NCBI GenBank assembly: GCA_963704325.1
Contig: OY969885.1
Location: 1,868,293 to 1,932,292 of the forward strand
Length of the DNA stretch: 64,000 nt
Direction of reading: 5' to 3'
DNA from: an uncultured Chloroflexia bacterium
GTDB taxonomy: Bacteria; Chloroflexota; Limnocylindria; Limnocylindrales; CSP1-4
Positions 21,840 through 26,552 of this stretch are shown piece by piece. A program made the translations under genes and the position numbers. The number at the start of each line of letters is the position of its first letter. Position 1 is the first letter of the stretch. Below the pieces are notes generated by a model. The model ran no database searches and was not told where the DNA came from. It was given only the letters and a program-made list of their open reading frames with translations.

Positions 21840-22832
21840 CTAGGTCGCAGGCACCCCGTAGGAGAGGGCCCTGAAGAGCGTTGCCAGGACCATGCAATGG
21901 TCGCTTGGCCGCGAGCAGTCGACGTGGGTGGAGACGGCCTCGAGCGTTTCGCTCGTGAGCACGTAATCAATCCGGATCAGCCCGAACGGAAGCGCCCGCA
22001 GGGCCGGCGGCCGCCAACTGAAGCCGGGGCCTATACCGGCGCTGCCATGGGCATCCTTGAGGTCTCGCGCGAGGCTCGCGTAGGCCGGCTCTCGCTCGGT
22101 GACGTTGAAGTCGCCCAGGACGATCACGTCGCGCCGCTCCAGCAGGTCGGAGTCGATCAAGGAGCGCACGAAGGCGATGTCCGCATCGCGTTGGGTCGTG
22201 TCCAGCCCGATGGGTACGCGCAGCACTGACTGGAAGCGAGCCGGAAGCGGATGTCCAACGTAGACGACGGCGGAGCCGATCCCGGTTGCCACAACGGCCC
22301 GAATGAGCGGCGGCTCACTCCACGTCTGTTGCTCGAGGATCGTGTGCCGGCTGAGCAGGCCCATGCCCAATACCGTCTGCTCCGGCGCCAGCACTCGATG
22401 CGGATAGCGCGCGGCCAGGGCCGGATCGGACTCGAGCGCGCGCGCCGCCTCGATCCTCAGCTCCTGGATCGCGACCAGGTCAGCGTCGACGCCGGACACG
22501 CCGGCGACTGCTCTGCCCGCCGCGTCGTCGGCGGACAGCATGTTCCAGGTGGCGACGCTCAGTGTTGGGCCTCCGGCGCCACTGCGCGGCAGTGACAGGA
22601 GCGGAGCCCCGTAGCGGATGACGACGACCACGATCAGTACGGACGCGAGCAGCGTGCGCCAACCGACTCGACGCCGGAGCGCGAAGGGGAGCGCAAGCAG
22701 CGCGCTCAGGACGATGTAGGGCTCGAGCACCTCGGTGAGCGCTATCACGCCCGCAGGCTGGGGCAGGAGCATGTGCACGCCGAGCAGAACAAGGACGGCC
22801 GCCACCCACGCGGCGGCAACTCGCGCCAACAC
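21840..22832 (-). CDS. Membrane-anchored endonuclease/exonuclease/phosphatase (EEP) protein
   Basis: TWN, DLVAIQE, GDFN, RIDYV, SDH; N-terminal transmembrane helices. Confidence 0.9.
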   Translation of the reverse strand: MLARVAAAWVAAVLVLLGVHMLLPQPAGVIALTEVLEPYIVLSALLALPFALRRRVGWRTLLASVLIVVVVIRYGAPLLSLPRSGAGGPTLSVATWNMLSADDAAGRAVAGVSGVDADLVAIQELRIEAARALESDPALAARYPHRVLAPEQTVLGMGLLSRHTILEQQTWSEPPLIRAVVATGIGSAVVYVGHPLPARFQSVLRVPIGLDTTQRDADIAFVRSLIDSDLLERRDVIVLGDFNVTEREPAYASLARDLKDAHGSAGIGPGFSWRPPALRALPFGLIRIDYVLTSETLEAVSTHVDCSRPSDHCMVLATLFRALSYGVPAT

Positions 22833-22846
22833 GGCGCGAGGCTACT

Positions 22847-23689
22847 TCACGCGGCGCGGAAGGGCGCGTCCACGGGCCGGCACACGCGGCACGGCCGGTA
22901 GCCGCCGCCGCGCGCCTCGTCGGCCGTGCGCAGAGAAACCCGGTGCGCGGCCGTGATCCGTCGCGCATTGCGACACGACGGGTAGCAGAAGACACCTGTG
23001 GTGTCGGACGCCATGAAGCGCACGCCGTGAGCGGGCAGCCGCTCCAGCTCGCTCGTGTCAAGCCCCTCCGATTCGAGCACGGCGCGTTTCGCCTCCGGCC
23101 CTCCGGCGCCGTATTGGCCGATTCGCCCGTCAGAGCGGACGACGCGGTGGCAGGGCACGACGAACGGCACCGGGTTGCGCGCGAGGGCATTGCCCACCGC
23201 GCGCACGGCCAGCGGGCGACCGATCTCGGATGCCACCCAGGCGTACGGCCTGACTTCGCCGCGCGGGATCTCGAGCGTCTTGAGCAGGACGCTGCGCTCA
23301 AAGTCGGGCAGCTGGGCCAGGTCGAGCGGCACCTTTGCGCTGCGCGCCGGGCGACCCCAGACGCGCGCGTTGATGACCCGCTCGATCAGCTCCGGCGCGC
23401 GCTCGATGAGTCGCACGGGCCGTCCGAAGGCGGAGCGGAACGCCTCCTCGAATTCGCCAGCGTCAGCGGCGCGCTCCACGAGCGAGATGCCGTTGCGCCC
23501 GAAGGCGATGAATAGCGGCCCGATCGGGCCGTCCACCTTGACGTAGGCGTCGCCCAGCCCGAGCCGGTCCAAAACAGCCTGTGCCAATCCATCCGGTGCC
23601 CGGTCGCGAAGGCGCCCCAGGCCTGCGCTGACCACCTTGTCGTGAGCGTCGTCGGGCCTGGTCCGCGAAGTCGGCTGGCGCTGCATCAC
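22847..23689 (-). CDS. Methylated-DNA-protein-cysteine methyltransferase with C-terminal Ada Zn-binding domain
   Basis: RAVGNALARNP...VPCHRV active site, then TTGVFCYPSC...GYRPCRVCRP. Confidence 0.92.
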   Translation of the reverse strand: MMQRQPTSRTRPDDAHDKVVSAGLGRLRDRAPDGLAQAVLDRLGLGDAYVKVDGPIGPLFIAFGRNGISLVERAADAGEFEEAFRSAFGRPVRLIERAPELIERVINARVWGRPARSAKVPLDLAQLPDFERSVLLKTLEIPRGEVRPYAWVASEIGRPLAVRAVGNALARNPVPFVVPCHRVVRSDGRIGQYGAGGPEAKRAVLESEGLDTSELERLPAHGVRFMASDTTGVFCYPSCRNARRITAAHRVSLRTADEARGGGYRPCRVCRPVDAPFRAA

Positions 23690-24279
23690 ATTGCCTCCTG
23701 GCGAAAGGTGTCGCGCTGCTCGGCGTCGTACGCCGCGCGCAACAGCTGGGTTCCTCTATGAACATCCGACTTGACGCTGCCCAGCGGCCTGTGCAGCGTC
23801 TCCGCCAGCTCCGCGTAGGACAGCCCGTCGATGTGGCGCAGGGCGACGGCAAGGCGATAGCGCTCGGGCAGCCCGGCCAGCAGGCGCGACCACATCTGCC
23901 GTTCTTCGCCCCGTTCGGCGACCCGCGACGGGCCGTCGTCAGTGGCGGCAATCGAGTCGCCGAGCTGGGTGATGTCGCTCGTCTGGCGGACGGTGCGAAG
24001 GCTGTTGCGCGCCGCGTTGAGGGCAATGCGCGCCAGCCACGGCCGCGGCCGGAGGGCGCGGACCCGTTCGGGCGGATATCGCCGCAGAGCACGATACGCG
24101 CGCACGAACGCGTCCTGGAAAACGTCCTGGGCCCGGGCGTGGTCGCCCACTACGCGTAGCGCCACTCCGAAAACGAGATCCTGGTGGGCCGCCATCAACT
24201 CGGCGAAGCCGCCGTCCAGGTCGTCCGCAAGCCGCGCGCATAGTGCATCCTCGGCCGGCCGGTCGACTACCTGCTCCAT
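23686..24279 (-). CDS. ECF RNA polymerase sigma factor
   Basis: AQDVFQDAFVRAY, WLARIALN (region 2); LPERYR...LSYAELAETL...SVKSDVHRG (region 4). Confidence 0.92.
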   Translation of the reverse strand: MEQVVDRPAEDALCARLADDLDGGFAELMAAHQDLVFGVALRVVGDHARAQDVFQDAFVRAYRALRRYPPERVRALRPRPWLARIALNAARNSLRTVRQTSDITQLGDSIAATDDGPSRVAERGEERQMWSRLLAGLPERYRLAVALRHIDGLSYAELAETLHRPLGSVKSDVHRGTQLLRAAYDAEQRDTFRQEAM

Positions 24280-24440
24280 GTGCACATCGGAATAACACAG
24301 CGCGCGCGTCAGGGGTTGCACCCTGCGCTGCAAAGCTCAACTTCCGTCACGTTCTCCGAATTCGCAGCCCGTTCTCCGCCGCGGTCGCCGTTTCCCGTCA
24401 ACGCCGCGAGTTTCCACGCAACCGAACCAAGATGGGTCAT

Positions 24441-25090
24441 TCACGAGGCAACGCGGTTCGAATTCGGCACTTCTGACAGAAACCAGATGCCGGCCAGCGG
24501 CCCTGCGGGCTGCCTCAGCCAGGCGCGGACCTCGCGACTGCGCGCCGGGTAGAGCTGGTGCATCGTCTGGGCATGGCGATGGCCACGTGACGCGCCGAAA
24601 TGCCGAACCGGTCCTGGCAAAGCTTGCGCGCCAGCCGAACCTTCACATCGAGCATTCGATTCGTCGCCTCGAGCGAGCCCAGCACAGTCTTCACTTCGCA
24701 TACTGCAACGACCGCCGACTTCTCGTGGAGGCCGAGCAGGTCGATTGAGCCTCGCTCGCCGTATTCCGAGAAGGTCAGCTCGATCGCGATCTGCCAGCCG
24801 CGCGACGCAAATATGCGCGCGGCTCGTTCGACCAGGGCCGCGTGACGCTCATCGAGCAACCGATCAGCTGCGGCGCCGTTGATCAGCGAAACGAACCGGC
24901 CTCGACCACCGGCAGCATCCAGCACTCGCCGCAGGCGGTCGAGCCGGATCTCACCGGCGCGACCGCTCTCGATGCGCATCAAGTCCCGGACTGGCACTCC
25001 GGCCAAGCGCGACAGGTCAATCTGGCGCAGCTGGCCGCGGCGGCGGATCGCGCGCAGCAGCTGGCCGAGGCGTTCGTCATCAGGATGCAC
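24441..25090 (-). pseudogene. XRE HTH plus PD-(D/E)XK nuclease-like fusion, frameshifted near the 3' end
   Basis: HTH LRQIDLSRLAGV...RIESG; E...GSIDLL...EVK. A protein-like tail YPARSREVRAWLRQPAGPLAGIWFL lies in a second frame from about 24580 to 24441. Confidence 0.6.
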
Positions 25091-25175: not shown

Positions 25176-26552
25176 TCAGCTGAGCAGGAAGCCTCCGCCA
25201 AGCGGATCGTGGCTGTCGATCACGAGCGTGGAGTAGCCGGTGACGTGGGCGGTTCCAGCCACGCTGGTGCTGAGCGCGCGATACGGGCCGAGCGCGGTCT
25301 CGGCCTCGATCCGGCCCAGGAAGTGCTCGCCGGTGATGCCGGCGTTGACGATCTGCTGGCCCACGGCCAGTCGCCCCCGGGCGTGGAGCTGGGCGAGGAT
25401 CGCGCTCGTGCCCGAGCCGCACGGTGAGCGATCCAGCTCGGCGTTGGCGAAGATCGTCGCGTTGCGGATGTGCGCGTCGCCGGCCCGTCCGTCGGGTGAC
25501 GATCGCGGATCGAAGTCGACGATGATCGTGCCGTATACGAAGGCGAGTGCCGCGTCCGTTGGATGGGCAGGGGTGTGGTCGCGGCGCAGAACGTCCGTGA
25601 TCGCTGCGCCGGCGCGGCGCAGCGCCTCGGCCTGGTCGGGCACGATGCGCAAGCCAAGGTCGGCCGCGTTGACGATGCCGTAGTAGGCGCCGCCGAAGCA
25701 GATGTCCACGCTCAGGCCGCCCAGCTGGGCGGCGTCTCCATGGAGCGCGAGGCCGTCCGGCCGCACGGTCAGCGACTGCGCGGCGAGATAGGCGGGCACG
25801 TTCGTGAAGCGCACTCCCTGGACCTGCCACGAGCCGTCCGCGGCACGTGCCGTTGTGGCGCTGGCCGTTACGAGGCCGGCCGGCACCTCGTAGCGGATCG
25901 TCGTCAGCGGCTCGCTCGCCGGGTAGAGGCCGTCCTCGATCAGCGCCGTGGTGATCGCGATGATGCCGTGGCCGCACATCGTGCTGTAGCCCTCGTTGTG
26001 CATGAACAGCACGCACACATCAGCCTGTTCGCCGTGCGGCGGCAGGAGGATGGCGCCGTACATGTCGCGGTGGCCGCGCGGCTCGTGGATCACCGCTCTT
26101 CGGATGTGATCGGCGTTGTCGCTCACCCATTGGCGCCGCTCGAGCACCGGCAGATCGGGCACGGCTGGAAAGCCGGAACGGATGATGCGCAGCGGCTCAC
26201 CGGCGCAATGAAGATCGAGCGTCTCGATCGTCGTCCTGGTTCGCGCGGGCGCGCCGCCGATCACAGTGGCCCCATCGCGGGCGGGCGCGGCCTCTTGCGC
26301 GGGTGCGGGCGCGGCCACTGGCGCGCTCCCTGGCGCGGCCTCTCGACCATTCGAAGCGGAGGACTGCTGGTAGCCAACGACGAGCAGCTCGCCGTCATCG
26401 CGCGTCAGCCAATGGTGGCTGACCGGGACATAACCGGCGCCCGCAGCTCGCTGGGCATCGCGCCGGTACCACTCCTCGACCTCGAAGCGCGTGGCTCCCC
26501 GGTAGTGGCGCACGACCCTTTCCTGGCGATCGGCGGTCACGCCCGTGTCCAT
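25176..26552 (-). CDS. Proline racemase/hydroxyproline epimerase family protein with N-terminal extension
   Basis: HCAGEPLR, EPRGHRDMYGA, MCGHG, DRSPCGSG. Confidence 0.9.
   Translation of the reverse strand: MDTGVTADRQERVVRHYRGATRFEVEEWYRRDAQRAAGAGYVPVSHHWLTRDDGELLVVGYQQSSASNGREAAPGSAPVAAPAPAQEAAPARDGATVIGGAPARTRTTIETLDLHCAGEPLRIIRSGFPAVPDLPVLERRQWVSDNADHIRRAVIHEPRGHRDMYGAILLPPHGEQADVCVLFMHNEGYSTMCGHGIIAITTALIEDGLYPASEPLTTIRYEVPAGLVTASATTARAADGSWQVQGVRFTNVPAYLAAQSLTVRPDGLALHGDAAQLGGLSVDICFGGAYYGIVNAADLGLRIVPDQAEALRRAGAAITDVLRRDHTPAHPTDAALAFVYGTIIVDFDPRSSPDGRAGDAHIRNATIFANAELDRSPCGSGTSAILAQLHARGRLAVGQQIVNAGITGEHFLGRIEAETALGPYRALSTSVAGTAHVTGYSTLVIDSHDPLGGGFLLS

Follow-up and report, generated by a model that had tools for sequence, protein, structure and literature searches.

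Could a suicide DNA repair enzyme serve as the anti-sigma factor of the sigma factor that transcribes it? This question is raised by two overlapping genes on the reverse strand of the window (the whole 64,000-nt stretch of contig OY969885.1 that was analysed), which belongs to a 2.43-Mb genome assembled as a single contig, with a completeness of 90% by marker genes. The first gene encodes a sigma factor of the extracytoplasmic function (ECF) type. The second gene encodes a protein, referred to below as the partner, in which an N-terminal extension precedes an O6-alkylguanine alkyltransferase (MGMT) and a C-terminal Ada-type zinc domain. The closest named relatives of the partner come from metagenome-assembled genomes of Chloroflexota and 'Candidatus Limnocylindrales'. 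From the evidence presented below, it appears moderately probable that the two genes form a self-regulated module in which the partner is both the repair enzyme and the anti-sigma factor, and in which consumption of the enzyme frees the sigma factor.

The partner gene (22847..23689, (-)) encodes 280 aa when read from the GTG at 23689 and 279 aa when read from the ATG at 23686; residue numbering follows the 280-aa reading throughout. Approximately 47 extra residues precede the N-terminal, ribonuclease-like domain of the MGMT (residues 47–128; 23306..23551, (-)), which was delimited by an alignment to Ada-C (1SFE) that begins at residue 48 and by the β-strands at residues 47–73 of the monomer model. 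The DNA-binding and alkyl-acceptor domain (residues 129–209; 23063..23305, (-)) matches PF01035 with 98 bits (cut-off 27) and contains the PCHR motif at residues 179–182 (23144–23155, (-)), with C180 as the acceptor. The MGMT is also matched by M. tuberculosis OGT (4BHB, E 2.5e-18). Seven residues (Y149, R163, N172, C180, H181, R182 and E208) are invariant among 74 sequences and include what we take, by their spacing, to be the counterparts of Y114, R128, N137, C145, H146 and E172 in human AGT. Judged by its sequence, the partner is a complete enzyme of the MGMT/Ogt type with intact catalytic residues, and alkyltransferase activity is predicted. After a short linker, the zinc domain (residues 221–272; 22874..23029, (-)) matches PF02805 (Ada_Zn_binding; 37.3 bits, cut-off 23, profile positions 14–64 of 65). 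In an alignment with E. coli N-Ada (1ADN, residues 24–77, E 5.5e-8), its four cysteines, C235, C239, C267 and C270, stand opposite C38, C42, C69 and C72; together with C180 they make up the exactly five cysteines of the protein. The partner is the sole PF01035 match and the sole PF02805 match in the 2.43-Mb genome, and it is therefore taken as a working alkyltransferase rather than a spare copy. No HTH_AraC match, and thus no AraC-type helix-turn-helix (HTH), was found in the partner by the Pfam scan, and the Ada equivalog NF011964 gives 86 bits against a cut-off of 345. These matches agree with the first-pass annotation, which had read an intact PCHR acceptor followed by a C-terminal four-cysteine Ada domain, in an order reversed from that of Ada and with the AraC part absent.

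The sigma factor gene (23686..24279, (-)) encodes 197 aa. Sigma70_r2 (PF04542) matches residues 28–97 with 60.5 bits, Sigma70_r4_2 (PF08281) matches residues 129–176 with 52.2 bits, and the TIGR02937 sigma70-ECF model gives 89.3 bits (cut-off 42.9). The domain scan found regions 2 and 4 and no match to region 3, which places the protein among the ECF (group 4) sigma factors. Both genes are thus present between 22847 and 24279, where the first-pass annotation had placed an ECF sigma factor and a 280-aa protein. Two alternative sigma starts exist, an in-frame GTG at 24285 and a TTG at 24333, of which the TTG is unlikely because it lies upstream of the promoter described below. The junction between the two genes reads ATGTGATG. 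The stop codon of the sigma gene overlaps the start of the partner gene as GTGA (for GTG 23689) or TGATG (for ATG 23686), so that the overlap reported earlier is real and the letters given for it, ATGA, are not. A ribosome-binding site, AGGAGG (23694..23699, (-)), can be read within the 3´-terminal part of the sigma gene and is separated from ATG 23686 by 7 nt. This ATG is the more likely start of the partner, and the database copy of the protein (P0001) agrees with it in being 279 aa long.

The sigma/partner arrangement recurs in nearly all related loci and is thus far from chance. The database search with the partner gave 5964 homologues. On genome contigs, a sigma orthologue lies directly upstream on the same strand in seven of eight partner loci, and the eighth is cut by a contig end; this set takes in two Pseudonocardia loci in which the partner lacks the zinc domain. 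A sample of the phylum (401 genomes) provided a second set: 69 of the 396 published genomes have a full-length relative of the partner at E ≤ 1e-44, a count that includes G000 and leaves out the unpublished G038 and G227. Within the best 29 loci of this sample, the sigma gene is found upstream in 28. The exception (L035) carries a stop codon inside the match, which starts only at residue 47. The two sets together show the pairing in 35 of 36 informative genome loci. On metagenome contigs, which were found with a long-form relative of the partner (see below) and have at least 500 nt upstream, the sigma gene is present in 58 of 59 loci, and the long forms themselves directly follow a related ECF sigma gene in 19 of 20 informative loci. 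The junctions are tight (−20 to +17 nt in all 34 of 34 intact pairs, with a 4-nt overlap in 19), the start codons having been assigned by our own rule. The conservation of the neighbourhood, which the first-pass annotation had named as a check of its proposal, is therefore evident.

The N-terminal extension of the partner contains a candidate sigma-binding segment (residues 13–45; 23555..23653, (-)), defined by two helices of the monomer model (residues 13–26 and 35–42), a conserved motif and an alignment with longer relatives. Among representatives of 50%-identity clusters, the motif L..L....aP..L...VL...GL.D.Y is kept before the MGMT N-domain, with or without a zinc domain. Eight relatives of approximately 300 aa (the long forms P0137, P0155, P0158, P0163, P0178, P0207, P0257 and P0269) carry an N-terminal Pfam zf-HC2 domain, with scores of 22.2–33.2 bits at a cut-off of 22.2. 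When short and long forms are aligned jointly, residues 16–45 of the window partner fall directly after the H-x3-C-x2-C motif. Because of this position, the extension is a candidate remnant of a class I anti-sigma domain, of which it would represent the C-terminal part, the zinc half having been lost. The extension is also linked to the sigma gene. A hidden Markov model (HMM) of the extension matches 28 of 29 sigma-linked loci (E ≤ 1e-7) and none of 20 other, lower-scoring MGMT loci, and its sole miss is L035, which itself lacks a sigma gene. The 20 lower-scoring loci could not all be accepted as a control for MGMT without sigma, since 8 of them have a distant ECF sigma gene upstream; only the remaining 12 were used as a sigma-free contrast. 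These 12 have 4–28 extra residues, a 51-aa stretch (L059) or a canonical Ada (L044), with lengths taken from the longest open frame.

The predicted complex places this extension on the sigma factor. Models of the sigma factor with the partner scored 0.79, 0.79 and 0.75, and the controls scored 0.58, 0.23 and 0.01. Of 157 solved complexes, 116 attain the mark applied to such scores, as do 2 of 215 mismatched pairs; these counts hold only roughly for the present model, which was built on custom alignments. The runs share at least 89% of their contacts, and the pLDDT (predicted local distance difference test) of the partner does not fall below 83. On the partner side, the confident contacts all involve residues 16–45 and residue 65, and the sigma side of the modelled interface comprises residues 22–62 (region 2) and 123–185 (region 4). 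Regions 2 and 4 are the core- and promoter-binding surfaces of a sigma factor. The conserved hydrophobic positions of the extension coincide with the predicted interface. The model supports binding of the sigma factor by the extension, which is considered probable, but does not show it. A short helical peptide would be enough to block an ECF sigma factor, as in short anti-sigma factors such as CnrY (class II) and RsbN (class III).

An ECF-type promoter, TGCAAC-N16-GTGTT, is found upstream of the sigma gene (24294..24320, (-)). The match is exact and ends 14 nt before the sigma ATG, which implies a short transcript leader or none. Upstream of the sigma genes, 20 of 35 loci have the identical motif, and the number rises to 31 of 35 when one mismatch is allowed; at this tolerance, it occurs in 0 of 35 reverse strands and in 2 of 700 shuffles. 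The motif is also found at 26 of 30 further short-form metagenome loci and at the Pseudonocardia loci. The upstream regions of the long forms, which join zf-HC2 to MGMT and Ada-Zn (L062–L086 and L095), mostly read GAAC-N17-GTGTT (10 of 13, a biased look), with the −10 element of the window and another −35 element. The module looks positively autoregulated and, as far as the exact-motif search tells, controls itself alone.

These observations can be assembled into a mechanism for a self-regulated module of two or perhaps three genes. In it, the ECF sigma factor would transcribe its own operon from TGCAAC-N16-GTGTT. The co-translated partner, as the sole suicide methyltransferase for O6-alkylguanine and methylphosphotriesters, would double as the anti-sigma factor: its two N-terminal helices (approximately residues 13–45) would insert between regions 2 and 4 of the sigma factor and prevent it from engaging RNA polymerase. 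Consumption of the enzyme, whether by irreversible alkylation of C180 and/or C235 followed by lost stability or by engagement on damaged DNA, would free the sigma factor, and we infer that the operon would then be re-expressed. The outcome would be an Ada-like adaptive response that dispenses with the AraC domain. The two genes form a genuine module that is conserved, and it is probably a sigma/anti-sigma pair, with a truncated anti-sigma domain joined to the suicide enzyme of alkylation repair. That alkylation is what triggers the release of the sigma factor is a more tentative step, drawn from known properties of these proteins: the irreversible transfer of the alkyl group, the destabilisation of alkylated alkyltransferases when the connection of their N- and C-domains is disturbed (PMC4605297), and the methylation of Ada C38, described as an electrostatic switch that raises DNA affinity (PMC10779285). 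The widest form of the proposal is more doubtful still. It holds that the suicide enzyme is itself the anti-sigma factor with irreversible self-alkylation as the signal, so that each molecule spent on a lesion would free one sigma factor and thereby order its own replacement in a stoichiometric response that senses consumption, and that the arrangement arose from a zinc anti-sigma factor by loss of the zinc half and spans Chloroflexota, Actinomycetota and other uncultured lineages.

Several observations weigh against this mechanism, and they are considered here together with the alternatives that they favour. The release step is the first point of concern. In the model, the acceptor cysteines C180 and C235 have no contact with the sigma factor and no link to the interface; nothing ties them to it, and the release step is therefore without structural support. 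The partner might accordingly restrain the sigma factor with alkylation not being the signal, either in a constant negative-feedback (dosage-buffering) loop or in response to another cue, such as regulated proteolysis or an attack of oxidants or electrophiles on the Cys4 zinc site. The evidence for binding (the complex model, the extension HMM and the long forms) applies equally to this alternative. In addition, the related long forms carry a zinc motif of the type found in zinc-binding anti-sigma (ZAS) factors, and in known ZAS factors this motif senses thiol stress. The enzyme itself speaks in the other direction. In every case, the extension is fused to an entire suicide alkyltransferase whose catalytic residues do not vary, mostly accompanied by the Ada phosphotriester domain, which is hard to explain if alkyl transfer is irrelevant to signalling. 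Restraint of the sigma factor without an alkylation signal is considered unlikely.

The reach of the response is the second point. The exact promoter occurs once in the 2.43-Mb genome, at the sigma-partner operon itself, and the 'response' would therefore comprise little beyond the enzyme. The only other GCAAC-N16-GTGTT site of the genome (G000, 625603) was dismissed as a regulon member, being antisense inside a 398-aa open reading frame (ORF). No AlkB (PF13532) was found in the genome of the window, which is 90% complete, and its glycosylase matches, one to PF02245 and four to HhH-GPD, are all distant from relaxed hits to the motif. The earlier suggestion that the pair replaces AraC-type activation holds as a fair analogy, but the sole promoter of this type found in the genome is that of the operon, and no Ada-like regulon is apparent.

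The third and broadest group of observations concerns binding itself, and bears on the possibility that the partner does not bind the sigma factor at all. The partner would then be a repair enzyme with two functions, sharing its transcript with a dedicated sigma factor, its extension would serve folding, DNA binding or oligomerisation, and the sigma factor would be controlled by its transcription or by an unlinked factor. The window partner has no Pfam anti-sigma match, and specifically no zf-HC2 match at E ≤ 0.01; it lacks the H-x3-C-x2-C motif and has no cysteine before residue 180. Its extension forms only two helices in the monomer model, compared with the four-helix domain of class I/ZAS anti-sigma factors, and no solved structure matched residues 1–47 by sequence. 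The monomer model is confident as a whole (pLDDT 92.9; predicted template modelling score, pTM, 0.85), including the extension (pLDDT 79–92), which could thus be a structural part of the enzyme; a confident fold of the extension in the monomer is compatible with a docked state and a free state alike. The complex prediction, which the first-pass annotation had also put forward as a check, came out in favour of the pair (0.79, best control 0.58) by a marginal step, +0.21 where +0.20 was required and with the 0.58 coming from an unrelated control. Moreover, many sigma/anti-sigma complexes have been solved, and the pass may mirror likeness to them rather than binding. A 463-aa protein (P0071) that joins sigma, MGMT and Ada-Zn in a single frame was rejected as Rosetta-stone evidence as too weak: it comes from one contig, has no second example among the 120 best matches, and may reflect either a misassembly or an uncommon fusion. 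Open frames of 421–449 aa in G285, G381 and G261 were likewise rejected as fusions, the matches at L017, L023 and L025 lying in different frames. Finally, the group descriptions in the published classification assign no putative anti-sigma factor to ECF122 and ECF203, the two catalogued groups with a comparable gene pair (PMC7826278).

Four observations speak against an enzyme that does not bind. The extension is limited to sigma-linked MGMTs (28 of 29 against 0 of 20), and the 12 sigma-free MGMTs have short extra stretches of 4–28 residues, the 51-aa stretch of L059 or the Ada architecture of L044 in its place. The extension is homologous to the part of the anti-sigma domain that lies behind the zinc motif, and its conserved hydrophobic positions are those of the predicted interface. 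We therefore regard a partner without sigma binding as rather improbable. The claim of the first-pass annotation that the partner occupies the slot of the anti-sigma factor and has an anti-sigma-like N-terminus is strengthened by the long forms with zf-HC2, the linkage of extension and sigma gene, the complex model and the promoter. A last alternative, in which the partner is a positive cofactor whose zinc-site methylation tightens DNA binding while the extension recruits or holds sigma-RNA polymerase at the promoter, can draw on the intact Ada zinc domain with its C38 equivalent and on the higher DNA affinity of Ada methylated at C38 (PMC10779285), but it is very improbable, given a partner without a sequence-specific DNA-binding domain, a predicted interface on regions 2 and 4 that suits inhibition in the manner of an anti-sigma factor better than recruitment, and two loci (L007 and L008) that lack the zinc domain and still have the sigma pairing and the promoter.

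Six ORFs were scanned at the locus: the pair, an EEP-family protein, an S-adenosylmethionine (SAM) methyltransferase, an XRE-type HTH protein and a proline racemase. The membrane EEP-family (endonuclease/exonuclease/phosphatase) gene (21840..22832, (-)) encodes 330 aa (PF03372, 72.9 bits) and starts 14 nt past the stop codon of the partner. Its product has a hydrophobic N-terminal third and a weak VanJ-like match, and the gene is present downstream in three of the five closest loci (L001, L002 and L005). It is possibly, though uncertainly, the third gene of the operon. The sole terminator-like sites lie inside the 5´ end of this gene and are no commoner than in shuffled sequences. Just upstream of the sigma promoter and on the same strand, a 191-aa protein with an N-terminal XRE/HipB-like HTH is encoded (24515–25090, (-)). 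It is followed further upstream by a member of the proline racemase family (25176–26552, (-); PF05544, 312.7 bits), whose longest ORF extends the N-terminus by approximately 110 residues ahead of the domain.

Eight Chloroflexota loci (L042, L047, L049, L053, L054, L055, L057 and L060) have a second type of ECF sigma-MGMT pair. Against the HMM of the sigma alignment A1, which contains 35 orthologues, the sigma factors of these loci score 56–117 bits, compared with 219–271 bits for the main type. Their MGMTs have a different N-terminal extension of 25–65 aa and no zinc domain, and the motif CTCAC-N17-CGTTT lies upstream at five of the eight (L053, L054, L055, L057 and L060).

Much of bacterial signalling runs through ECF sigma factors, and for several of the catalogued groups no regulator is known. 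Should the alkyltransferase prove to be the anti-sigma factor, two such groups would gain a mechanism. The adaptive response to alkylation, known mainly through the AraC-type Ada, would then have a second form based on a sigma factor, and an enzyme that signals by being consumed would be a novel type of sensor domain for an anti-sigma factor. In size the module is modest, with one promoter, two genes and five cysteines.

Among known systems, the pairing of sigma and MGMT genes is already catalogued. A literature search found no published study that treats an alkyltransferase as an anti-sigma factor, and a 2023 review of alkyltransferases nowhere uses the word 'sigma'. According to the group descriptions in the classification of ECF sigma factors (Casas-Pastor et al. 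2021, PMC7826278), ECF122 has an MGMT gene at position +1, and ECF203 has a +1 MGMT together with Ada_Zn_binding, with TetR and MFS genes conserved nearby. Each of the two groups is given as 100% Actinobacteria and as unstudied in function. The passage on ECF122 in a 2022 review places the group under 'unknown mechanism' (PMC8999054). The window pair shares the +1 MGMT with ECF122 but differs from it in promoter (TGCAAC / GTGTT in the window; CTCAC (−35) / CGTCTAC (−10) in the entry for ECF122, PMC7826278) and in taxon, its closest named relatives being Chloroflexota. Membership of the window sigma factor in ECF122 was rejected on these two grounds. The CTCAC-N17-CGTTT motif of the second-type Chloroflexota pairs is close to the promoter reported for ECF122. 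With ECF203, the window shares a +1 MGMT that carries Ada_Zn_binding, but the six ORFs scanned include neither a TetR nor an MFS gene, and the closest named relatives are again Chloroflexota rather than Actinobacteria.

Zinc-binding class I anti-sigma factors offer a parallel for the extension, and RsrA-SigR is their textbook case. As in that class, the partner is encoded directly after its co-translated ECF sigma factor, its long-form relatives carry zf-HC2, and the complex model places its extension in the space separating regions 2 and 4 of the sigma factor. Unlike a ZAS factor, the window partner lacks the zinc motif and the first helices, and its output domain is an enzyme instead of a membrane or redox sensor.

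The parallel for the function is E. coli Ada. Both suicide acceptor domains, the Cys4-zinc domain for phosphotriesters and the domain for O6-alkylguanine, are shared, and in both systems the repair protein plausibly governs its own synthesis. The domain order of the window partner is reversed, and the AraC HTH is missing. Ada acts by binding DNA, whereas the window partner would act by sequestering a sigma factor. A regulon of the alkA/alkB/aidB type was not seen in this genome, where there is no PF13532 match and the exact promoter is unique to the operon. A canonical Ada, with the order Cys4 zinc, AraC-like region and MGMT and with no adjoining sigma gene, can be read from the translation at one locus of the same phylum (L044, G045:C4); both solutions therefore occur in Chloroflexota.

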